A DNA stretch of 49,276 bases from Promethearchaeota archaeon (GCA_048941065.1 JBHLNY010000002.1:1-49276), one strand, 5' to 3'; positions 37,778 to 49,104 are shown, numbered from the stretch's first letter. Notes: a model not told the origin generated them from the letters alone. Program-made: numbers and translations.

Positions 37778-39133
37778 TTATTTTAATAGCTTTTTCTCTT
37801 TTGCATCTAATTCCAACCAATCACTAATATTTTTAAGTTGTTTTCGTGATGATCCGGAGAGGATTTTTAAGAAGGGTAGGAGTTCTTGTATGAATTCAAT
37901 TGGAGAAATTTCATATATTTTTTGTATTTTTTCAGCGAATTCTTTTTCGGTATTTGTTAATGAAAAATAACTCCCAGAAATATAACGAGGGAATACAACC
38001 CTTCGAAATCCTTTAGCTACTGGTGTTTGTTTTCTGGATAAAGCAACACCTCCTGCAAAAAGATCATAGAAGTAAGGTAATAACCCCCAATATTGGTTTT
38101 TACGGATTCTTCCGAAAACTTCATCTGCTAGGGAGAGATTTTCGTAGGCATCAGCGATTTCTCTATTAGTTTTTAGGAAAGTTGGGAGATTTTCATTTAT
38201 CCATTTATATAGAAAATTGTAATCAACATCTGATTTATCTGTTAAGTTCCGGGCTTCTGATATTGTAGAAACTTGAAATAAATTCCGTATTAAAGTAAAA
38301 ATTTCTTCGATACTATCTCGATGTAAGCTAAGGATCAATTCTTTGTTATCCTTATCCATTACACCTTGACTAATTCCTTGAAGATCATTAATAACACCCC
38401 TTAAATCTCCGTTATTCTTATCTATGATAAGTTCTAAATCTTCTTCTGTGAGATCAGTTATTTTCTCCTTTTCAAGAATCTTTTTAGCAATTTTAAGCAT
38501 TTCATTTTTGGGTAATGGGTGGACTTCAATCCTTTGTACTTGATTATAGATTGGTTGTAAGTTTGTTTTATATTCATTTGAACACATGATAACTGGAAAT
38601 TGAGTATTTTGAATTAATTCTAATATGGTTGGAACTGCACCTCTATCTTGTACGCCATAAATACCATCAATCTCATCAATAAGAATCATTTTATCTTTTG
38701 ATTGAGTGATAAAGTCCATAATCCCTCTCGTTTTTGTCGTTTCTTTTAGTTTACTTTCTATGGCTCCCCTAGTTCGCGTATCAGAAGCATTAGTTTCAAT
38801 AACTTCCATATTTAAATCATTTGCAAGGGCATAAACTATCGAGGTTTTTCCTACTCCAGGCGGTCCTTCTAATAATATAGCTGCTTTTTCTGGAGATATT
38901 TTTAGTTCTTCTTTTTGATCTTTTTCTACAGCAGTCCTATTAAAGGCTCTTATTTTTTTATTTTCCTCATTTATTTTGTTGATCTCAGTTTTAAATTCTC
39001 TAATAAAATTATTTAATTCCTCATCCAGTTTTATCCTATGCCCACTAACTCGTGCTGAGGGTAAAGCCATATCTTTAAGACTTTGAGGTCTATACTTTTC
39101 AACCCAAGGAATGTTATTTATTTTTTTGGACAT
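37778..39133 (-). CDS. rfcL: replication factor C large subunit
   Basis: PWVEKYRPQSL box II, LLEGPPGVGKTS Walker A, ILIDEIDGI Walker B, DRGAV. The ATG at 39133 is preceded by GGTGA with a 5-nt spacer. The alternative GTG at 39142 abuts the upstream stop codon. Confidence 0.88.
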   Translation of the reverse strand: MSKKINNIPWVEKYRPQSLKDMALPSARVSGHRIKLDEELNNFIREFKTEINKINEENKKIRAFNRTAVEKDQKEELKISPEKAAILLEGPPGVGKTSIVYALANDLNMEVIETNASDTRTRGAIESKLKETTKTRGIMDFITQSKDKMILIDEIDGIYGVQDRGAVPTILELIQNTQFPVIMCSNEYKTNLQPIYNQVQRIEVHPLPKNEMLKIAKKILEKEKITDLTEEDLELIIDKNNGDLRGVINDLQGISQGVMDKDNKELILSLHRDSIEEIFTLIRNLFQVSTISEARNLTDKSDVDYNFLYKWINENLPTFLKTNREIADAYENLSLADEVFGRIRKNQYWGLLPYFYDLFAGGVALSRKQTPVAKGFRRVVFPRYISGSYFSLTNTEKEFAEKIQKIYEISPIEFIQELLPFLKILSGSSRKQLKNISDWLELDAKEKKLLK

Positions 39134-39142
39134 TTTAATCAC

Positions 39143-40189
39143 CTATAAACATTCTGAGAATAAACATATTTTAGATAATAATGCTGAGATTTGAATGTCA
39201 TTATCTATTCCATCAATTGCTCTAAAATCAGAATCTGCTATTAAGTTGATTAATTTGACTCGTACAAATTTACTTAAAGGTAATTTATTTAATTCCTTAA
39301 GCAGAAGAGAAAATATTTCATGTGGGTTATATTTATAATTAGAAATAATTTTTCGCGCTAAATCTCTCGATTTTGGGAAATCTCCTCGGAGAGCCATCAA
39401 CAAAAGATTTCTTATAAGATCATTTTGAAATCTTTGCGAATTTTCATATAATTTTTTCATATCTATACTTTTCCCTGAAATACTACATAGTTGTAATAGA
39501 TCAATTGCTTTCGAAATTTTCCCTTCAGAAACCTTGAATAAAACTTCAATAGCATTATCATTAATATCCAGAGATTCATTTTTAGCGACATCTTTTATCA
39601 AATCTCTAAATTTATCGAATTCTGCACGAGAAATTAGTATTATTTGACATCTACTCACAATAGGATCGATAATACTTGAAACTTTAGTTGAGATTAAAAT
39701 TACTCTACAATTAGAGCCGTAAATCTCCATTAATCTCCTAAAGCCTTGCTGATTGGATCCTAAAAACTCAAAATTTTTTACTACTAATATTTTGAATGGA
39801 GCATCTCCAATTACCTTTAATTGTACAAAAGGTTTAACTCTAACTTGGATAAAAGCAGGAGTAGTTATAGTTCTACCTGCCATGCTTCCGATTTTACTTG
39901 TTGAAATATATGCTTCAGATTTTGCTTGTTTCCGTTCATCATCACTTAATGGAACATCAGCATAAATTAATTTGAAGTTAGCATCATAATTATTACTTAA
40001 AAATTCCTTTGCAAATAATTGGGCGATAGTGGTTTTTCCAATACCTTCAGAACCTATAAACAATATATGAGGAAAATTTTTCTGTTTTATAAATTGCTTT
40101 AATGTATTTTTGACATTATCTCTTCCACAAATTCCGTCTAAGTTCTTTGGATGGTATTTGATTCTCCAAATTGGAATATTAGTCTTCAA
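39143..40189 (-). CDS. divergent RFC small-subunit paralogue (Walker B lost, SRC retained)
   Basis: 348 aa, TTG start. IWRIKYHPKNL (degenerate box II), GSEGIGKT (altered P-loop), VVKNFEFL where DEAD is expected, and IDPIVSRCQII (SRC arginine-finger motif kept). It has about 28 extra residues between the P-loop and the Walker B position. Confidence 0.75.
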   Translation of the reverse strand: MKTNIPIWRIKYHPKNLDGICGRDNVKNTLKQFIKQKNFPHILFIGSEGIGKTTIAQLFAKEFLSNNYDANFKLIYADVPLSDDERKQAKSEAYISTSKIGSMAGRTITTPAFIQVRVKPFVQLKVIGDAPFKILVVKNFEFLGSNQQGFRRLMEIYGSNCRVILISTKVSSIIDPIVSRCQIILISRAEFDKFRDLIKDVAKNESLDINDNAIEVLFKVSEGKISKAIDLLQLCSISGKSIDMKKLYENSQRFQNDLIRNLLLMALRGDFPKSRDLARKIISNYKYNPHEIFSLLLKELNKLPLSKFVRVKLINLIADSDFRAIDGIDNDIQISALLSKICLFSECL

Positions 40190-40243
40190 TATCTTACCGC
40201 TTCATAATTTTTTTACTATTATTTTTATCCAAATCTTGAAGTT

Positions 40244-41218
40244 TTATTTATTTACTAATTCTATCATTTTCGCTATAATTGCTGAAATTTGAATGTGTTC
40301 ATCTGCACCTTGACTTATTCGATAATCTATATCTCCAATAAAAGAGTTTAAACTAGTTAAATTCTGAGAATCCATATTAAGTAAAGACAAGGAGTCTAAT
40401 AGTTGACGAATGAAATTTCTACTATCGAGATTTTCAACCGAGTTAATTAATTCTCTAGATTTTTTGAAATCTTTATTTTTAATAGCTTCAATCAGAAATT
40501 TTAAGGTGGACTCGTCTAAAAATCCAGAAATTTTTAGGATTTCATCAATGTCTAAATCATCTAATAATTCAAGTGCTACTGACATTTGTAGTGTATTTAT
40601 TGCTTTCCTTAAATCACCACCTGAAATAAAATATAACTTTTCAAAAAACTCTTGTGATTTCTCGGAAGGAATTGCAAGCTTTTCCTTTTTTGAGATATAC
40701 TTTAATCTTTCTACAATTTTCTCCTTAGAAAGATTAACAAACCTAAATACAGCACATCGAGATATTATAGGATCTATAATTCTATTTATATAATTACATA
40801 ATAATATGAATTTAACGTTATTAGATGCCTTTTCTATAATCCTTCTAAGAGCTTGTTGAACTTGGGATGGAATATTATCTGCTTCATCCAAAATCACAAA
40901 TTTCAAGGTCCCATTTTTTATGATATTTTGATCTACAAAGCTTTTAAGAATGTTCCTTACAAAATCTATTCTTACGGTGTCAGAAGCATTCAATTCTAGA
41001 AGATTTGTATCAATCTCTTCTTTTTTGAGGAAGGTTCTTGCTATTATTAATGCAGTACTTGTTTTTCCCGTTCCAGCAGGACCAGCAAAAATCATATGGG
41101 GCATGTTAGTAGTTTGTACAAATTTTCTTATGTTATTAATAGCAATATTTTGACTTACGATATCATCAAAAGATTTTGGACGATATTTTTCTACCCAAGG
41201 AAAAATTTCTAAGCTCAT
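40244..41218 (-). CDS. rfcS: replication factor C small subunit (canonical)
   Basis: 324 aa. PWVEKYRPKSFDDIV, GPAGTGKTS, ILDEADN, LLCN sensor 1, IISRC. Confidence 0.92.
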   Translation of the reverse strand: MSLEIFPWVEKYRPKSFDDIVSQNIAINNIRKFVQTTNMPHMIFAGPAGTGKTSTALIIARTFLKKEEIDTNLLELNASDTVRIDFVRNILKSFVDQNIIKNGTLKFVILDEADNIPSQVQQALRRIIEKASNNVKFILLCNYINRIIDPIISRCAVFRFVNLSKEKIVERLKYISKKEKLAIPSEKSQEFFEKLYFISGGDLRKAINTLQMSVALELLDDLDIDEILKISGFLDESTLKFLIEAIKNKDFKKSRELINSVENLDSRNFIRQLLDSLSLLNMDSQNLTSLNSFIGDIDYRISQGADEHIQISAIIAKMIELVNK

Positions 41219-41246
41219 TTTCTAAAAAAATGTTAATTTTAAGACG

Positions 41247-41717
41247 CTATTTAGTTAAATTTAACTCTAAAACCTCGAATACTTTTTTAAAATCCATACT
41301 TTTGTATAAGTCTGAAGCCTTCTTTGCTTCTTCTCTTATATTAACTTTAACTTTCTCAACTTTTATCTTTTTAAGATGTTCAAGAGCTTTTTCAAGTAAT
41401 TTTCGACCGTATCCCTTACCACGATAATCCTCCTTTAAGAAAAATTGCTTAATATATCCTTCTGAGGTCCCAAAAGGGTCTATTCTAAGTTCTGCTATTA
41501 TCATGCCAGCAACTTTATTTTCTTCTTCATCTATGGCAATTAAAATTCCATGTCTTTGCAATGGGTCGTATAATCTTCTTCGAATTCCCCAGTCGAAACG
41601 TTTTGGATCAAATTTTTCTCCTAATTCCTCAACAAGGTGTTTCGTTAGATCTCGTAAATCCTCAATTTGTGCTGGAGAAGCGATCTCTACCTTTATATCA
41701 GCCATTTCAATCATCAT
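41247..41717 (-). CDS. GNAT family N-acetyltransferase
   Basis: 156 aa. Acetyl-CoA motif A YRGKGYGRKLLEKALEHLKK. Confidence 0.85.
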   Translation of the reverse strand: MMIEMADIKVEIASPAQIEDLRDLTKHLVEELGEKFDPKRFDWGIRRRLYDPLQRHGILIAIDEEENKVAGMIIAELRIDPFGTSEGYIKQFFLKEDYRGKGYGRKLLEKALEHLKKIKVEKVKVNIREEAKKASDLYKSMDFKKVFEVLELNLTK

Positions 41718-42010: not shown

Positions 42011-45000
42011 TTAATCATGCTCTTCTTTTGGAAGTAATGGATGGTATATAGGCTTGAGCCCTTCTCCGTAGAGTTTGTAATTCATCCATCTTTTTTCTTT
42101 TTTACTCCACTTTAAATTTTTTAAAGGATTATAGGATTTCAAAAAACTCAAATCTTGATAAAGAAACTCGAGTAATTTTTTCCCATCGATCATATCATTC
42201 AAAATAAGATAATGATCAATTCCTAAATAATGAAATAATAATTCAAAAATGCTTTCAAACTCATTTATTTCACAATCTGGAAAATATAGCTTAATCATTA
42301 CCCCATTCTCAAAACTAATTTCATCATTCATACCATAGATAAAATATTCTCCTTCAATTTCATATACAAAACCAAAATTGAAAAAGCTAAAGATTTGTAG
42401 TATTTTTTTATTTAATTCTTTCTTTATATTCGGTAAAATAATATAAATCTTTTCGAGTAAACCTAGATTCTTTAATTTAATATAAGGAAAGATTAAACTT
42501 TCTTTAAGAAGATCTGGAACTACATTATTCTCAAAATTATATGAATATAAGTCACTTGCTCTCCAATTATATATTTGGACTAATTTCTCAAAATACATAG
42601 AATTTTGGCCAAAAAATTCTGAGCTTTTTAGATCGCCTAAATTAAAATGCTTCACTTTTGATACTTGGGATTTGTATGTAGGATTGAAGAGAATATTTTG
42701 AATATGAATCTTGAATCGATTAGGATCATAGTTCCATTTGTTTTTGCCTAGATTGTAATTAAAATTAAATATCTGAAAAACTTTCTTCAAAAAAAATAGG
42801 CAATATTCCCGAACATTCTTTTTTGTCTTTGTATGATAATTTAAATATGCCTTATTAGGATTACGGTATGGATATAGGTAGTTAATAAATAGGGAACTAG
42901 AACTATCAATGCGAACTGGATATTTTACTTTTTGAAAAGTATTACTCAATAAAAGTTTCAAATCTGTATCTCCTAAATTAAAAGGTCGAATAAAGAGAAA
43001 ATATTGTGATAAACCAAACTGTTCGAAACACGGTATAAACTTTATTGATTTAATGTAATTTTTAATAAGGGATGTTCCTGTTCGTTTGTTATTTAAAATA
43101 TTTAGAGTTAAGTCATCATGAAATTGAAATATTTCATTTAATAATTTTTTATTATATTCAGCATTCTCTTTTATAAAACGTGTTTCAACCTTTTTACTTA
43201 AGTCTTTTAAATTTTTTTCTGTAAACCATAAAAAATTATGAATTTTGTCAGAGAATTCTTGGCGAATTTCAAGGGGATTACCTAAAATTTTTTGTACATA
43301 CAAAAAGTATTGCTTATACAAATCTTTACTATAAAAAAATTGATTTGATCTAAAATCATAAAAATCTAAAAAAGGGTATTGTAATGGACCTATCATTCCT
43401 ATTAATCCACTCCAATAAAGTCTTTTGAAGTTAATTAGATTTTCACCGAATAAAGAGTGCAAAATTGATAAAAATAAATCTTTTTCCTTTAAATTAGGAA
43501 GATACAAGATAACAAATATTAATTTATCGCCTGTAAATAAATCTTCTAAAGAAAATAGCCATGTCCTTGGAAAAAACTTTATCAATTTTCTTAAATTTCT
43601 CCGAGTTTCTGATCTATCCTTAAGAAAAAAGGCAGGAAAATAATTTGAAAATGTACTTGTTAAAATTGAGTTTATTAGTAAAGGTTTTGCTAAAGGAGGA
43701 TCTTGTTTAACAAACTTATCCAATATAGTTTCTATATCTTGGTTTGTAAGTTTCTCTGGGTCAAATACCGTATAAGAGTCTTTCAATTTTTCTTTTCTTG
43801 TTAAGTAAATTTCTTGCCTTATTTCTCTATTTTCAATTATTCGAATTATCTGGGCTATGTTAAATACTTTCAAACTATTACATAATTTAAAAAAATTGTT
43901 GAAAAATTGGAATTTTTCATGTTCTTTATAAAATTCTTTTTTTGATTTAAAGTATAAGGTAATAAATTTATTAAATAGCATGTGGTTAATTTTTTTAACG
44001 TTATATAAGAGGTTATATTCAAGTTCTTGTGAAAAGCCAGTTATATTGATAAACTCTTGAAGTTGGTATTCATTTTTAATTTCAGAATTACTAGTAAGTA
44101 TATTATTTATCTTATCAAGACATATTAAGAGATCGTTTAATAGGTTTTTTACATAGAAGAATCCATAGATTTGAAATTTTTTCAAGAAATATAAAAGAGC
44201 GTTTTTAAATTCAAGTGAACTATCAATTTTATGGAAATATTTGTTTAAGTTGTTCAGAATAGCTTTTTCACTTAATATCCTATTATTTATATCAGATTTT
44301 AATGCGTTAAGGGTTTCTATTCTTCTTTCAAATGTAAATCCTGCACCTGAAAAGCTATTTAATCTATCAAGAATTGCAAAATCTAAGATTGATAAGTTAG
44401 GTTTGAAAGAAGTAGGGATATATTCTATATTAAATTCAATCTCATATTTCTTCTTATAATTACTATTATCTCTATCTATAAATTTTCTCTTACTTTTGTG
44501 AAATTCTCTAAAATAATTAAGATTTAAAAGATTAGTAAAGCTTCTTGTCATTAAACACTTTTTCTCAAGAATATAACCATTTTTTTCCAATTTTTCTAAT
44601 AAAGATAAAAAATCCTTCACATATATCTTTGGAATATAAAACATGGCCGATAATTCGGAGGAAAAATTATTCCTTGACCGCTTAATCACAATTAAAAAAG
44701 GAATATTTTGTATAATTTTTTCAATACTAGCTCTCTTCAAAATTGGATTAAAAATAAAAAAAGTATGGATAAATATCACATTTATTGACATCCAATTGAA
44801 TTGTAAGCTAGGGCTGATGTACGTATAATTCTTAACCTTTCGCATCTTGTCAATATATTTATTTAAACTTAAATCTGTTTTGATAATATGTTTATTCTTA
44901 AATTCTTTAAAGTAATTTTCATATTCTAATAACGATTTATAGCTTTTTAAACGATAGAACATTTGACAAGTAATTCTAATTGTCTCAATCAAATCATCAT

Positions 45001-45607
45001 CATTCATAAATTCAGCTGTTTCCAGAGCATATTCTTTGAAAAGTATTGTATAAAAGAGATCTCCCATATTTTCTATGATTGTAGCATTCCTACGTAAGAA
45101 TCCAATAGTAAATGATATAGCTCCCTCAAGTTTTAAATACTTTTCCAATTTGTCAAGTAAAGCATCCATTAATTCGTAATCTACTATTTGATGATAGATT
45201 AAAGAATTCCATTCCTCTATCAGGGAGAATTTGGAAAATTCATTAGTAAGAAGTTGATGAATTATGAATTGCACGTTTCTTTTTTCTAATAAAGTATCTG
45301 GAATAAAACAATTATAGATTTCTCTAAGTAAAATAATTGGTAAATACTTATTATATTTCTTATAAACCTCTATTGATAAATGATCAGATTTGACATGTCT
45401 ATTAACCCCTAGACTAAAAATATTTTCATTATTGATTTCAGGTTGAATGGTTTCACTAAACGATATTTCTATGATTCTATAAAGGGGAGTTAAATCTAAG
45501 AATGATTCAATTTCAGTGAGCACTTTCTGAAAGACTTCATTTATTTTACTTGCATCTGCTTCAGGTGAAAGATCTACCAAAGAATCAACAAATTCTAACA
45601 TTGTCAT
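42011..45607 (-). CDS. 1198-aa orphan protein built from repeated strand-helix modules
   Basis: Long uninterrupted ORF rich in F/Y/N/K/L/I. No P-loop, nuclease, protease or metal motif recognised. It has internal repeats and a C-terminal module shared with the 379-aa ORF at 46628..47767. Confidence 0.8.
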   Translation of the reverse strand: MTMLEFVDSLVDLSPEADASKINEVFQKVLTEIESFLDLTPLYRIIEISFSETIQPEINNENIFSLGVNRHVKSDHLSIEVYKKYNKYLPIILLREIYNCFIPDTLLEKRNVQFIIHQLLTNEFSKFSLIEEWNSLIYHQIVDYELMDALLDKLEKYLKLEGAISFTIGFLRRNATIIENMGDLFYTILFKEYALETAEFMNDDDLIETIRITCQMFYRLKSYKSLLEYENYFKEFKNKHIIKTDLSLNKYIDKMRKVKNYTYISPSLQFNWMSINVIFIHTFFIFNPILKRASIEKIIQNIPFLIVIKRSRNNFSSELSAMFYIPKIYVKDFLSLLEKLEKNGYILEKKCLMTRSFTNLLNLNYFREFHKSKRKFIDRDNSNYKKKYEIEFNIEYIPTSFKPNLSILDFAILDRLNSFSGAGFTFERRIETLNALKSDINNRILSEKAILNNLNKYFHKIDSSLEFKNALLYFLKKFQIYGFFYVKNLLNDLLICLDKINNILTSNSEIKNEYQLQEFINITGFSQELEYNLLYNVKKINHMLFNKFITLYFKSKKEFYKEHEKFQFFNNFFKLCNSLKVFNIAQIIRIIENREIRQEIYLTRKEKLKDSYTVFDPEKLTNQDIETILDKFVKQDPPLAKPLLINSILTSTFSNYFPAFFLKDRSETRRNLRKLIKFFPRTWLFSLEDLFTGDKLIFVILYLPNLKEKDLFLSILHSLFGENLINFKRLYWSGLIGMIGPLQYPFLDFYDFRSNQFFYSKDLYKQYFLYVQKILGNPLEIRQEFSDKIHNFLWFTEKNLKDLSKKVETRFIKENAEYNKKLLNEIFQFHDDLTLNILNNKRTGTSLIKNYIKSIKFIPCFEQFGLSQYFLFIRPFNLGDTDLKLLLSNTFQKVKYPVRIDSSSSLFINYLYPYRNPNKAYLNYHTKTKKNVREYCLFFLKKVFQIFNFNYNLGKNKWNYDPNRFKIHIQNILFNPTYKSQVSKVKHFNLGDLKSSEFFGQNSMYFEKLVQIYNWRASDLYSYNFENNVVPDLLKESLIFPYIKLKNLGLLEKIYIILPNIKKELNKKILQIFSFFNFGFVYEIEGEYFIYGMNDEISFENGVMIKLYFPDCEINEFESIFELLFHYLGIDHYLILNDMIDGKKLLEFLYQDLSFLKSYNPLKNLKWSKKEKRWMNYKLYGEGLKPIYHPLLPKEEHD

Positions 45608-45940
45608 CTATATTTCAAATTTTAATGCATATTATCACTAAATCCCATTGGAAAATAACCATCTTTAAATATACGATAATTAATAGTTAATACTCTTAAA
45701 CTCTATTTAAAATTTTGGATAATTATGGTTAGTTGTATACTATAAATATTTTTAATATTTACTTAAATTCAACAATTTTTTCGTTCACTTTAAAAATAAA
45801 TCTAAAAAGATAGTATTGTAGGTATGATTACCTACGTGTTGGTTAACGGGGAGGAGGTTAACTAGAAATGTTATTCCCAGGAGAAACAGTTCCTTAAATG
45901 ATCGTGAGATTCACTATTGAATCTTACAATTTATATTTCT

Positions 45941-45992
45941 ATTAATGGAGCACTCCATTAATTTTACATTATGAAGGCAAAGCCTTCATAAT
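45941..45992 (-). terminator. two tandem perfect hairpins 30-80 nt downstream of the 174-aa gene
   Basis: ATTAATGGAG-CA-CTCCATTAAT (45941-45962) and ATTATGAAGGC-AAA-GCCTTCATAAT (45968-45992). The palindromic stems could act on either strand. Confidence 0.35.
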
Positions 45993-46023
45993 AGACAATC
46001 ATTATAAAAACGTTTTACCGTAG

Positions 46024-46548
46024 TTATAAATCACGTTTTTTCAAGATAACATCTTTGCCCTTATTAGTAGCATATTCAATGATAGCATCCATAAGTTGTC
46101 TTGCTTTAGCTCTATTGAGAATGGCGAACTTAATAGATTTAATAATTTGTTGATCAGGTCCAATTAAAAATTTGATTTTAAATACATTTGTTCTTCTTTG
46201 CAGTTCTATAGGTTTAAGTGATCCTATTTCTTTTCCTAATGCTTTCAATTTCATAGCATCAAATTCAGACCAACTGATTTCAAAACGAATTTTTTTTGGT
46301 TTTATGATCATAAATTTTTCATTTGAAAGTACATATCTTACCCACTTATTTCTTGAATAGGCATAAACACTGAGAGGAACTATAATGGCTAGTAATACTC
46401 CCTCAAATATTAGAAAATAAATAAAGGCAACACCAGGGAAGCCACTAAACGCTATAGTAAGTATTATAAAGAGACCTACAATACAACCAAAGAATATATA
46501 ATATCTAGTTTTAAGATTTTCGACTAACTCAAATTCATTAGATTCCAT
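46024..46548 (-). CDS. two-TM membrane protein with PH-like (bPH-like) cytosolic domain
   Basis: 174 aa. Two adjacent hydrophobic helices (YYIFFGCIVGLFIILTIAFSGF and AFIYFLIFEGVLLAIIVPLSVYAY), then a beta-rich segment and a terminal helix. This is the layout typical of bacterial PH-domain membrane proteins. Inference only. Confidence 0.6.
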   Translation of the reverse strand: MESNEFELVENLKTRYYIFFGCIVGLFIILTIAFSGFPGVAFIYFLIFEGVLLAIIVPLSVYAYSRNKWVRYVLSNEKFMIIKPKKIRFEISWSEFDAMKLKALGKEIGSLKPIELQRRTNVFKIKFLIGPDQQIIKSIKFAILNRAKARQLMDAIIEYATNKGKDVILKKRDL

Positions 46549-46571
46549 AGAATGTAGATAAGTTAAATATC

Positions 46572-46579
46572 TATATAAA
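46572..46579 (-). promoter_or_regulatory. TATA-like box upstream of the 174-aa gene
   Basis: Minus-strand TTTATATA centred about 27 nt upstream of the ATG at 46548, with no SD. This fits a leaderless internal promoter. Specificity is low in AT-rich DNA. Confidence 0.3.
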
Positions 46580-46627
46580 TATTAACTTTTTGTAATTCCA
46601 CTTCTTCGACCTTATTATTTAAAAACT

Positions 46628-47767
46628 TTAATCCAGTAATTTTTCAATCTCATCAATTTTTTTAAGAAGCCAGTTCTTAAAGTATGGAAAATCTTTGATG
46701 GAGGGAATCTTAGTAGTTCCTTTCAGTGATTGTTTATGATTTTTTATTTCATTTTCTATTGGATTATCTATAGTATTTCCAAATAAATCCATTAATATCT
46801 TATTATTCAGTTGTAACTTCTTGAAAATGAATTGAAAATCAGATAAGTCATTATCAACTAAGTTATATTTCGAGATGTTCATTTGTACCCATTCGCTTAA
46901 GAATTCTTCAGATATCCCCTCTTTCCAATGATGGTTTCGTAGGTAATTGTATAATTTCTGGGGATTGAATAATTCTTCTAATTCTAAGTGTGCGGAATTT
47001 ACCCGCTTATTCCTATATTCATGAAGGAGTTGGATAAACTCCTTAGCAATATTTTTGTTCTGTGATATAATGATTTCATATTCATGGGAATAATCCTTTA
47101 ATATTTTATGTGTTCTGGGTTGTGAGTATGATTCAAATTTTAGAGATGGTATATCAGGAATATTTATATCAAAATATGTATGCGTGAATTGTAGAATTTT
47201 GTTCCAGTATCGCTTATCATAGTCAGCAAGAATCTCTGGAAGATTCAATAACTTTTCATCTTGATTTAGTTCAGTAAAAATTCTCGTAGCAGCAGCTTTA
47301 ATCTTTATAATCTTGTCTTGTAAAATGATTTCATTTTCAGAAGTAGAGATTAGATGATTTTCAAAATCTAAATTAGAATTATCTTCATAATTAAGAAATT
47401 GATTATTTTTTTTATTATAAAATAGAAAATCACTTCCATTCGCAAGGTCTTGAACATTCATATTAGTATTTATGATACATCGCATTCCGTCCAGTTCCAT
47501 AAGTTCAGAGATTTTATCTTTGTCAACATTATAGATAAAAAAGAGAGTAGGGTTCTGAGAGTAGGAGTTACTTTTTTCATATTCGAGAATCTCTTTTAGA
47601 TTATGCAATGCTGTTGATTCTAGATCAACTATATTATAACCAACAGTAAAAAGCTCTAAGGAATGAAGATGCTTTAAATCAATGTATGGAAAAATTACTA
47701 AGTTCTTCTGTTGAAAAAATAATATATTCAAAAATTCTGGTGTAATAAAATCAACTCCTGAATCCAC
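46628..47767 (-). CDS. 379-aa orphan protein (N-terminal module shared with the 1198-aa protein, helical C-terminal half)
   Basis: GTG start preceded by GGTGGTGA with a 6-nt spacer. The N-terminal LVIFPYIDLKHLHSLE matches LIFPYIKLKNLGLLE in the giant ORF. No known motif. Confidence 0.7.
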   Translation of the reverse strand: MDSGVDFITPEFLNILFFQQKNLVIFPYIDLKHLHSLELFTVGYNIVDLESTALHNLKEILEYEKSNSYSQNPTLFFIYNVDKDKISELMELDGMRCIINTNMNVQDLANGSDFLFYNKKNNQFLNYEDNSNLDFENHLISTSENEIILQDKIIKIKAAATRIFTELNQDEKLLNLPEILADYDKRYWNKILQFTHTYFDINIPDIPSLKFESYSQPRTHKILKDYSHEYEIIISQNKNIAKEFIQLLHEYRNKRVNSAHLELEELFNPQKLYNYLRNHHWKEGISEEFLSEWVQMNISKYNLVDNDLSDFQFIFKKLQLNNKILMDLFGNTIDNPIENEIKNHKQSLKGTTKIPSIKDFPYFKNWLLKKIDEIEKLLD

Positions 47768-47806
47768 TTCGAATCACCACCTAATCTTAAACAAATTGGA
47801 ATTTAA

Positions 47807-48478
47807 TTAACAATGAAAATATTTAAAGATGACCTGAAGGATAAGATCCTTAAAACAATTGATAACATTCTCTCCTTGCAAAGCTACTGTTGGATATATT
47901 ACATAAGTACCATCTGGATAGGTTTCTTCTAAGGGTAATCCTAACTGAACCTTAAACTTTTCAATTGGAATTGCTTTTTTTAGATCTCTCTTATTTAACT
48001 GAACTAGATATGGAATTTTTCTTGCTCTAGCGAAACTTATCAATTCCCTAAAACTTCTTTTATTTTGTTCGATCTTATCAGGTGAAGAATCTCCAACAAA
48101 TATAATCCCATCAGCTCCATCCAAAACATACTCACGAGTCGATAAAAAGCGTTCTTGACCTGTACAGGTTACCACATGCGTAATGATATTATATTTTATG
48201 TCATTAAGTGCAAACTTAAACAATAAATATAAAGAATCTTCCCAGAGTGTCCTTCCTTCTGTAGTATCAATCGAATACCCCCTTGTTAATTTTAATAGCT
48301 CAAATTTTTCACGTAATCGAAAGAAATTCGTGGTCTTCCCACTTTCACCTGGACCCCAATAAACAATCTTAAACTGGATCATGTTCTCATTATCATTAAA
48401 GTCAAAATCTTCACTAATTTCTAATTCTGGTTCCTTCTCTTCACCTATCTCAAATTCATCCTCGCTTGGAAGTTCCAT
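47807..48478 (-). CDS. mglA: MglA-family small Ras-like GTPase with acidic N-terminal extension
   Basis: KIVYWGPGESGKTTN (G1), GRTLWED (switch I with conserved Arg), TCTGQE (G3 with Thr in place of Asp, the MglA hallmark), NKRD (G4) and VALQGENV (G5). The ATG at 48478 is preceded by GGTGA with a 4-nt spacer. Confidence 0.88.
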   Translation of the reverse strand: MELPSEDEFEIGEEKEPELEISEDFDFNDNENMIQFKIVYWGPGESGKTTNFFRLREKFELLKLTRGYSIDTTEGRTLWEDSLYLLFKFALNDIKYNIITHVVTCTGQERFLSTREYVLDGADGIIFVGDSSPDKIEQNKRSFRELISFARARKIPYLVQLNKRDLKKAIPIEKFKVQLGLPLEETYPDGTYVIYPTVALQGENVINCFKDLILQVIFKYFHC

Positions 48479-48498
48479 AAAATCACCTATGACATTAG

Positions 48499-49047
48499 TT
48501 AGGAAATTGTACCAATCTTATCTTTAAAAATCTCTTTCTTCAGTTTGTTGATGTGTGCTTTAATCTCTTCTTCAGACATTCTTAACGTTTCTTTCATCTT
48601 TTCATTTTTTTTAATTTCTTCCCGAATTTTTAGAGCAAAATTACTCATTTGCAAGATTATTACCCCTAAATTGACTTCATTATCGGTCAATATAACTACT
48701 AAAATATCTCGCTTACCCTTTTTCTGAAGCTCCACTTTCCCTATGGACTTAACAAACAGCCGCATATCTCGATAAATTAAGGATGCCCGTTCTAACTCTT
48801 CAGTCTCAAAAAAGTCTTGACCTTGCCGTGCTACTCCGTATAATGCAGCACCAATGGAGCTTAAATCCCAATAATTTAACTTTCTGTCAAATCGGGAGTC
48901 GATGGCGATAATCTTTGCGTCTTGGTCGATGGCTATTAGTCCGTAAATGTATCCCTTTCTGGTTAATTTACCATAATTATATCTAATCTCGTCCAACACT
49001 TCAGTTATTTTATTTTCATACAAAACTTTTGGTATATGAGTTATCAT
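48499..49047 (-). CDS. mglB: Roadblock/LC7 (MglB-like) protein with C-terminal charged helix
   Basis: 182 aa. The pattern GLIAIDQDAKIIAIDS...LSSIGAALYGVARQG...ASLIYRDMRLFVKSIG...ILVVILTDNEVNLGVI fits the roadblock alpha-beta-alpha fold. It sits directly upstream of the MglA-type GTPase. Confidence 0.75.
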   Translation of the reverse strand: MITHIPKVLYENKITEVLDEIRYNYGKLTRKGYIYGLIAIDQDAKIIAIDSRFDRKLNYWDLSSIGAALYGVARQGQDFFETEELERASLIYRDMRLFVKSIGKVELQKKGKRDILVVILTDNEVNLGVIILQMSNFALKIREEIKKNEKMKETLRMSEEEIKAHINKLKKEIFKDKIGTIS

Positions 49048-49093
49048 TTTTATTTTTTAAAATTGTAATTTTAATGATAACAAATTATGGTGG

Positions 49094-49104
49094 ATATATT
49101 TAAA
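49094..49104 (-). promoter_or_regulatory. TATA-like box upstream of the roadblock-GTPase operon
   Basis: Minus-strand TTTAAATATAT lies about 50 nt upstream of the ATG at 49047. There is no SD before this first gene. Confidence 0.3.

Follow-up and report, generated by a model that had tools for sequence, protein, structure and literature searches.

A 49,276-nucleotide (nt) stretch of DNA from a Promethearchaeota archaeon (GCA_048941065.1, JBHLNY010000002.1:1-49276; hereafter the window, G+C content ~30%) carries on its minus strand, at positions 46628-49047, what is probably one copy of a vertically inherited, Asgard-wide three-gene operon of a roadblock-type protein, an MglA group-1 GTPase and a GTPase-binding partner of 379 amino acids (aa). 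Homologues and base composition assign the window to an uncultured Asgard archaeon of Loki type. An earlier description of the same DNA, made from its letters only (the sequence-only reading), had reported five co-directional minus-strand genes at this place. All five are present as listed in the open reading frame (ORF) table, but the unit consists of three. The triplet is strictly conserved, whereas the two genes that follow it, encoding a 174-aa protein with two transmembrane segments and a 1198-aa protein, are not; hence, these two are unrelated neighbours. The features of the unit are the following:

48499-49047, minus strand: roadblock-like gene (gene 1), ORF of 182 aa
48483-48487, minus strand: GGTGA Shine-Dalgarno motif, 4 nt upstream of the ATG of the GTPase gene, read from the sequence
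47807-48478, minus strand: MglA-type GTPase gene (gene 2), ORF of 223 aa
47774-47781, minus strand: GGTGGTGA Shine-Dalgarno motif, 6 nt upstream of the GTG of gene 3, read from the sequence
46628-47767, minus strand: conserved partner gene (gene 3), ORF of 379 aa with a GTG start

Conservation and constraint of the triplet

The gene neighbourhood was surveyed in 78 species-representative Asgard loci encoding a homologue of the 379-aa protein, the ORFs of which were searched with the window proteins. The roadblock-like and MglA-type genes lie directly upstream of the third gene, on the same strand, in 68 of the 68 loci with at least 1.5 kb of upstream sequence. The gap between the GTPase stop and the third-gene start is short (median 32 nt, range 5-166, 74 loci). 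The triplet is also found in the called-gene tables of a closed 3.3-Mb Loki-type chromosome, of another Loki-type metagenome-assembled genome (MAG) and of a Thor MAG. Among the 60 loci with at least 6 kb of downstream sequence, in contrast, none has a homologue of the 174-aa protein and only two have a downstream homologue of the 1198-aa protein. Only 3 of the 78 loci (L047, L059 and L024) have a member of the 1198-aa family less than 10 kb away, in varying orientation, and the loci closest to that of the window (L010-L012, third gene 72-76% identical) have neither homologue within 10 kb. The sequence-only reading had wired the GTPase pair to all three proteins; the census bears this out for the 379-aa gene, and not for the other two, whose homologues are rarely or never found beside the pair. 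Nor are the three proteins orphans, as they had been called: relatives exist for the 379-aa protein (582, 52-77% identity), for the 1198-aa protein (75 full-length, 31-50% identity) and for the 174-aa protein (at least one, 68% identity).

The module occurs in at least five Asgard lineages, in one or two copies per genome. A divergent paralogous triplet keeps the same gene order, with a roadblock-like protein 48% identical to that of the window. Several Loki-type genomes contain two complete copies (L043/L066, L037/L072, L045/L073 and L068/L074), and a third, much more divergent triplet is found at L088 (proteins of 183, 208 and 502 aa), from which it follows that the module is duplicated as a whole. 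A MAG named 'Patescibacteria group bacterium AMOR_Bin_1762' has two contigs, L033 (JANBVM010000009.1) and L082 (JANBVM010000035.1), that also encode the third protein, L033 as part of a complete triplet. These contigs point to a mis-binned or mislabelled MAG.

Evolutionary distances were compared in the 28 genomes that have all the genes concerned. Pairwise distances average 0.27 for the roadblock-like protein, 0.30 for the GTPase, 0.38 for FEN1, 0.49 for the third protein and 0.54 for a neighbouring OB-fold protein. The first two thus evolve more slowly than FEN1 in the same genomes, and their distance matrices are closely correlated (r = 0.93). These comparisons show strong purifying selection. 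FEN1 itself lies within 10 kb of the module in 48 of the 78 loci, and the locus is vertically inherited and housekeeping-like, not a mobile island. Together with genes for a 202-aa protein and the OB-fold protein (~300 aa), FEN1 forms a conserved block within 10 kb upstream of the module in 44-48 of the 78 loci, with variable genes in between (for example, L008 1549-4488 and L009 3278-6055). The window ends before that region.

The gaps in the window are 20 nt between the roadblock-like and GTPase genes, 39 nt between the GTPase and 379-aa genes and 79 nt between the 379-aa and 174-aa genes. The internal genes 2 and 3 are each led by a Shine-Dalgarno motif, while no such motif was found upstream of gene 1 or of the 174-aa gene; an AT-rich, TATA-like stretch precedes gene 1. 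The first two gaps, both motifs and the GTG start are all read in the sequence as had been described before. An alignment places this GTG start (MDSGVDFI...) in register with the N-termini of the homologues.

The three proteins

The best PDB matches of the GTPase are the MglA proteins of Thermus thermophilus (8e-23, phmmer), to which residues 32-215 align, and of Myxococcus xanthus (5e-20). The next class, Asgard Arf-like proteins and Arf, follows at 5e-8 or weaker; in Pfam, the match is Arf (4.5e-10). The protein starts with an acidic extension of ~30 residues. Its G3 motif is TCTGQ, with a threonine for the usual aspartate (TxxGQ), accompanied by the switch-I arginine of GRTLW and by the catalytic glutamine. 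These motifs hardly vary among 81 homologues: T[CA]TGQER is found in 79, xGRTLW in 80, the P-loop GPGESGKTT in 80 and the G4 motif NKRD[LI] in 79. With the motif definitions of PMC4316618 and PMC3000849, the GTPase is by its sequence of MglA group-1 type, and its motifs show it to carry its own arginine finger and catalytic glutamine. The MglA-type assignment of the sequence-only reading is therefore confirmed, with MglA far ahead of Arf and the group-1 motifs near-invariant.

The 182-aa protein encoded upstream has 673 relatives, which are 80-99% identical across the Loki, Hod, Hermod, Odin and Thor lineages. Several relatives with 80-96% identity are labelled Roadblock/LC7/MglB by JGI and NCBI. 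The only PDB match of the family profile is a Roadblock/LC7 protein (9jue_D), at a weak E-value of 0.076. Aligned by hhalign to PDB-validated M. xanthus MglB, the family matches over 28 columns (E = 0.042, probability 1.2%) in the beta4-beta5-alpha3 region, the same region as the 9jue_D match. An AlphaFold2 (AF2) model, built on an alignment of close homologues, has the secondary structure H14-26, E37-40, E46-50, H59-79, E101-110, E113-121 and E126-133, followed by two helices that form a predicted C-terminal extension. This element order is that of the roadblock fold, in a model that is itself poor (predicted local distance difference test, pLDDT, 49) and with which Foldseek returned nothing meaningful. 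Pfam and NCBIfam gave no roadblock match for the 182-aa protein or for 31 family members (E up to 10), and a local hmmsearch of ~1.4 Mb of Asgard DNA found no canonical roadblock protein that could serve as a bridge to the family. Because of the JGI and NCBI names, the 9jue_D and MglB matches and the predicted fold order, the protein is accepted as probably, though not provenly, roadblock-like (MglB-like). The roadblock/LC7 assignment made earlier is thus weakly supported by these matches and names, and not by Pfam or NCBIfam.

The third protein has no Pfam family (window protein and 58 members scanned). Its family comprises 137 cluster representatives and, as far as the sequence tools show, is confined to Asgard archaea; the one distant member with a source name comes from an Asgard (Promethearchaeota) archaeon. 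The AF2 model (pLDDT 76) consists of an alpha/beta domain (residues ~1-125) and an all-helical domain (~134-379): five strands lie within residues 23-118, and only helices follow, at 134-378. A c-DENN alpha/beta sheet followed by an all-helical d-DENN is the architecture of FLCN-CT and DENN1B (PMC3438538), with which the model is compatible.

In a minority of homologues, the third protein continues into a ribonuclease (RNase)-type module. Among 75 complete homologues, 47 have no C-terminal module, 18 have an NYN domain and 10 an HEPN-like tail, so that RNase-type modules are present in 28 of the 75 (about a third). The NYN domain corresponds to Pfam PF11977, with E-values down to 5e-12, and was found in 17 of the 58 members scanned by Pfam. 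The HEPN-like tails are of two module types with an RNxxxH motif and match Abi_2 below the threshold (8.3e-5 and 0.013); the tail of protein P0109 resembles, at 5.7e-18, the C-terminal domain of PDLC02907, which PADLOC lists as a candidate defence protein. The window copy has neither module and ends with the core at residue 379, and the PADLOC models matched none of the five window proteins, the three core proteins included. A literature search (Asgard with HEPN, NYN and roadblock) found no paper on RNase fusions of the third protein, and the word 'NYN' does not occur in the accessible part of the preprint of Liu et al. (bioRxiv 10.1101/2020.10.19.343400). The recurrent RNase modules on third-gene homologues are absent from the literature found and are possibly a new observation.

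One candidate relative outside this family was rejected. The family profile aligns without gaps, over 82 columns (E = 1.3e-3), to the C-terminal Ariadne region of ARIH1, pairing residues 111-192 of the 379-aa protein (window 47192-47437) with the last 80 residues of human ARIH1. The alignment, though unusual, was judged a chance one because no other Ariadne-family chain matches, Pfam is blank and the model has strands where ARIH1 presumably has a helix. P0449 (516 aa; region L089 4472-7551) is remotely related to the third protein, matching with its N-terminal domain only (E = 5e-4), and has no GTPase pair beside it. Its gene directly follows a B12-binding radical-SAM gene and precedes two helicase genes.

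Relation to known systems and proposed function

Comparative genomics led Liu et al. (bioRxiv 10.1101/2020.10.19.343400; Nature 2021) to predict a Roadblock-small GTPase-DENN operon that they call 'conserved in most Asgard archaea'. According to the accessible part of that work, it encodes a LAMTOR1-like Roadblock protein, a small GTPase that is Rab-like and a protein with a DENN domain. The window module is very likely this operon, and the 379-aa protein probably belongs to the family termed DENN-domain there. The three kinds of protein come in the same order (roadblock, small GTPase, larger partner) in most Asgard lineages; moreover, that operon was proposed as a GTPase-regulating module resembling a guanine nucleotide exchange factor, and the architecture predicted here for the third protein fits c-DENN plus d-DENN. 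The system had been put forward as undescribed by the sequence-only reading; it was probably already predicted by Liu et al., and the Asgard MglA1 and MglA2-5 groups have been catalogued (10.1101/2024.02.28.582541). In addition, Tran et al. (2024) described a small MglA-like group in MK-D1 and stated that MK-D1 GTPases generally do not share operons with roadblock genes, and a 2026 paper modelled an MglA-MglB pair of Thorarchaeota. A literature search for Asgard with MglA-like returned nothing. For the window, the outcome is in the main a correction, since the unit has three genes instead of five and belongs to a family that is not new. The published prediction is refined in two respects, as the GTPase is of the bacterial MglA group-1 type, not Rab-like, and the third protein repeatedly gains RNase modules.

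Asgard archaea possess many small GTPases and roadblock/longin proteins, which are regarded as forerunners of the membrane and signalling systems of eukaryotes. Genome layout reveals partners for almost none of these proteins (Tran et al. 2024). The module is an exception, being a fixed triplet of GTPase, regulator and partner across Asgard lineages that is constrained more strongly than FEN1. This fixed composition, constraint and breadth therefore place it among the most tractable entry points for the biochemistry of the Asgard GTPase cycle.

By analogy with MglB, the roadblock-like protein would act as a dimeric GTPase-activating platform that stimulates GTP hydrolysis. The GTPase, by its sequence, carries its own arginine finger and catalytic glutamine. 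The third protein would bind the GTPase, either as an exchange factor, in line with the DENN/FLCN-like reading of Liu et al., or as a reader or effector of the GTP state. An RNase module, found in about a third of species, suggests RNA cleavage or targeting as one output. The window third protein would act as a regulator, adaptor or recruiter only, because its copy is without such a module. The 174-aa gene, the spacer with hairpins behind it and the 1198-aa gene would be separate units that happen to lie downstream.

The module resembles several characterized systems in part. As in MglA/MglB of M. xanthus and T. thermophilus, the GTPase has TxxGQ, the switch-I arginine, NKRD and a full-length G1-G2 region, and the upstream gene encodes a probably roadblock-like protein with predicted C-terminal helices. 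However, the match of this protein to MglB is marginal, relatives of the third partner are confined to Asgard archaea as far as the sequence tools show, and no RomR/RomX, Frz or motility genes are present. The eukaryotic DENN/folliculin-type regulators, which act on small GTPases on roadblock/longin platforms (FLCN-FNIP with Rag-Ragulator), likewise bring together a small GTPase, a protein of roadblock fold (probable here) and a partner with an alpha/beta and a helical part (predicted here). The partner here, however, is without the N-terminal longin (u-DENN) module, which was not found in the 379-aa protein, the GTPase is not of the Rag family, and sequence and fold searches found no significant link. 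The actinobacterial conservon CvnA-D and other conserved MglA-group operons (Wuichet and Søgaard-Andersen 2014, PMC4316618) likewise join an MglA-family GTPase and its MglB homologue with further conserved partners, but the partners there are others (a histidine kinase and CvnC). The neighbourhoods of group 1 MglA are variable in that study, in contrast to the fixed third gene of the group-1-like Asgard set.

Several results weigh against a roadblock-MglA operon with a DENN-like, GTPase-binding partner. The assignment of gene 1 draws on weak matches and a poor AF2 model, and contact between the third protein and the GTPase is suggested by strict synteny only. The correlation between their distance matrices (0.83) is not above that of the third protein with the unrelated controls FEN1 and OB-fold protein (0.80-0.85), nor does the third protein correlate better than the controls with the roadblock-like protein and the GTPase; the mirror-tree comparison adds nothing beyond shared phylogeny for the third gene. 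The GTPase is called Rab-like in the accessible text of Liu et al. and is of MglA group-1 type here; the identity of the two operons is a deduction. Most homologues (47 of the 75, the window's included) are without an RNase module, and RNA cleavage therefore cannot be the core function. As for the DENN assignment, the Pfam models DENN, uDENN, dDENN and Folliculin match none of the 58 members (E up to 10), and hhalign of the family against PDB-validated FLCN-CT gave a probability of 0.1%. Foldseek of the 379-aa model against the PDB gave no significant match: there were only generic alpha/beta hits (E >= 0.026, TM-score <= 0.25), with no DENN structure among the best 50.

The third protein might thus be unrelated to DENN, an Asgard-specific effector of a new fold; the operon of Liu et al. 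would then be a different locus and the module an undescribed MglA/MglB output. The blank Pfam, Foldseek and hhalign results fit this idea, as do the Rab-like GTPase and LAMTOR1-like roadblock protein named in the part of Liu et al. at hand, against an MglA-type GTPase here, and the MK-D1 GTPases found generally outside roadblock operons by Tran et al. It is nevertheless unlikely. It would be a coincidence if two different operons of this kind were both kept in most Asgard archaea, and the alpha/beta-plus-helical model fits c-DENN:d-DENN; since FLCN is only 11% identical to DENN1B (PMC3438538), the negative sequence tests for DENN are weak.

The RNase modules invite two further interpretations. 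The trio might serve in anti-virus defence or other conflicts, its GTPase switch licensing an NYN or HEPN RNase effector as in abortive infection. Either of two unrelated RNase-type modules may occupy one and the same C-terminal position, an alternation that is typical of conflict systems; the PDLC02907 match of P0109 and the sub-threshold Abi_2 matches point the same way. This is improbable, however, for a module present in at least five Asgard lineages in one or two copies per genome, whose roadblock-like protein and GTPase evolve more slowly than FEN1 and whose position beside FEN1 is fixed in 48 of the 78 loci. The three core proteins, moreover, have no PADLOC match, and 47 of the 75 homologues have no RNase module. 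More tentatively than the three-gene operon itself, the module may be proposed as a core Asgard device in which a roadblock-cycled MglA-type GTPase controls an RNA-directed output via the third protein, the recurrent and interchangeable NYN and HEPN-like modules marking this function; RNase-less forms such as that of the window would then recruit or regulate an RNase in trans. To our knowledge, a small-GTPase switch gating RNA cleavage has not been described in any domain of life. A role of the pair in cell polarity or motility as in Myxococcus, with the third protein as a pole-targeting factor, would be in keeping with the MglA group-1 catalytic features and the adjacent MglB-like gene. It is highly improbable, as the surroundings of the module hold no conserved pilus, archaellum or chemotaxis genes, the fusions are RNase modules and not motility domains, and the neighbours are replication and housekeeping genes. 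The original idea of the sequence-only reading, that the five genes form one GTP-switched, membrane- or cytoskeleton-associated assembly, has the least credit of all, the census having largely refuted it. In its favour, the genes follow one another in the same direction in the window, the 379-aa and 1198-aa families both conserve a short motif (IFPYxxLKxL), and members of the 1198-aa family occur at up to 10 kb from the module in the window, L047, L059 and L024, which is more often than random placement would give. Against this stand the census counts (0 and 2 of the 60 loci, and neither gene in L010-L012), the unrelated contexts and varying orientation of the 1198-aa gene, the DnaJ neighbour of the 174-aa relative, the hairpins and spacer parting the two genes, and a motif of only 18 columns with an hhalign probability of 2.7%. 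No evidence for a membrane-associated or cytoskeleton-like assembly was obtained.

Genes and signals downstream of the triplet

Downstream of gene 3, and for the motif shared with it, the following features were recorded:

46024-46548, minus strand: gene of the two-transmembrane protein, ORF of 174 aa
45800-46030, both strands: hairpin cluster (four tight hairpins, stem length 7-12 bp), immediately downstream of the 174-aa gene
42011-45607, minus strand: gene of the 1198-aa protein, ORF of 1198 aa
47656-47709 (residues 21-38 of the 379-aa protein) and 42452-42505 (residues 1035-1052 of the 1198-aa protein), minus strand: shared motif (L/V)IFPYxxLK(H/N)LxxxE, conserved within both families

The single relative found for the 174-aa protein is encoded on a marine-sediment metagenome contig (L090 2872-3411), divergently from a DnaJ gene and with no GTPase module in the vicinity. 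A spacer of 416 nt (415 in the earlier description) parts the 174-aa and 1198-aa genes and is indeed structured: its first 230 nt fold far better than shuffled controls (z-scores -6.2 for the minus strand and -6.0 for the plus strand). Rfam (at the gathering threshold and at E up to 1) and tRNA scans found nothing in the window or the spacer, and the window holds no second copy of the hairpin cluster. The cluster may represent a terminator cluster or a small RNA of no known family.

The motif shared by the 379-aa and 1198-aa proteins is all that was found of the private module which the two had been said to have in common. It comprises 11 identities in 18 residues (BLASTP E = 0.06), and the hhalign probability over these 18 columns does not support homology statistically.

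The 1198-aa protein belongs to an Asgard-only family of ~1200 residues with no Pfam family, for which a profile search revealed no PDB sequence match. Its gene is found in unrelated contexts in L001, L003, L004 and L005, while near the triplet, in L047 and L059, it lies upstream on the same strand or convergently. In L001, L004 and L059, it adjoins a gene for a B12-binding radical-SAM protein (~530 aa), in varying orientation. The link of the 1198-aa gene to the radical-SAM gene is more consistent than that to the GTPase module. A row of genes on the minus strand of the window (37778-41717), directly downstream of the 1198-aa gene, encodes three replication factor C proteins of 454, 348 and 324 aa together with a GNAT acetyltransferase.

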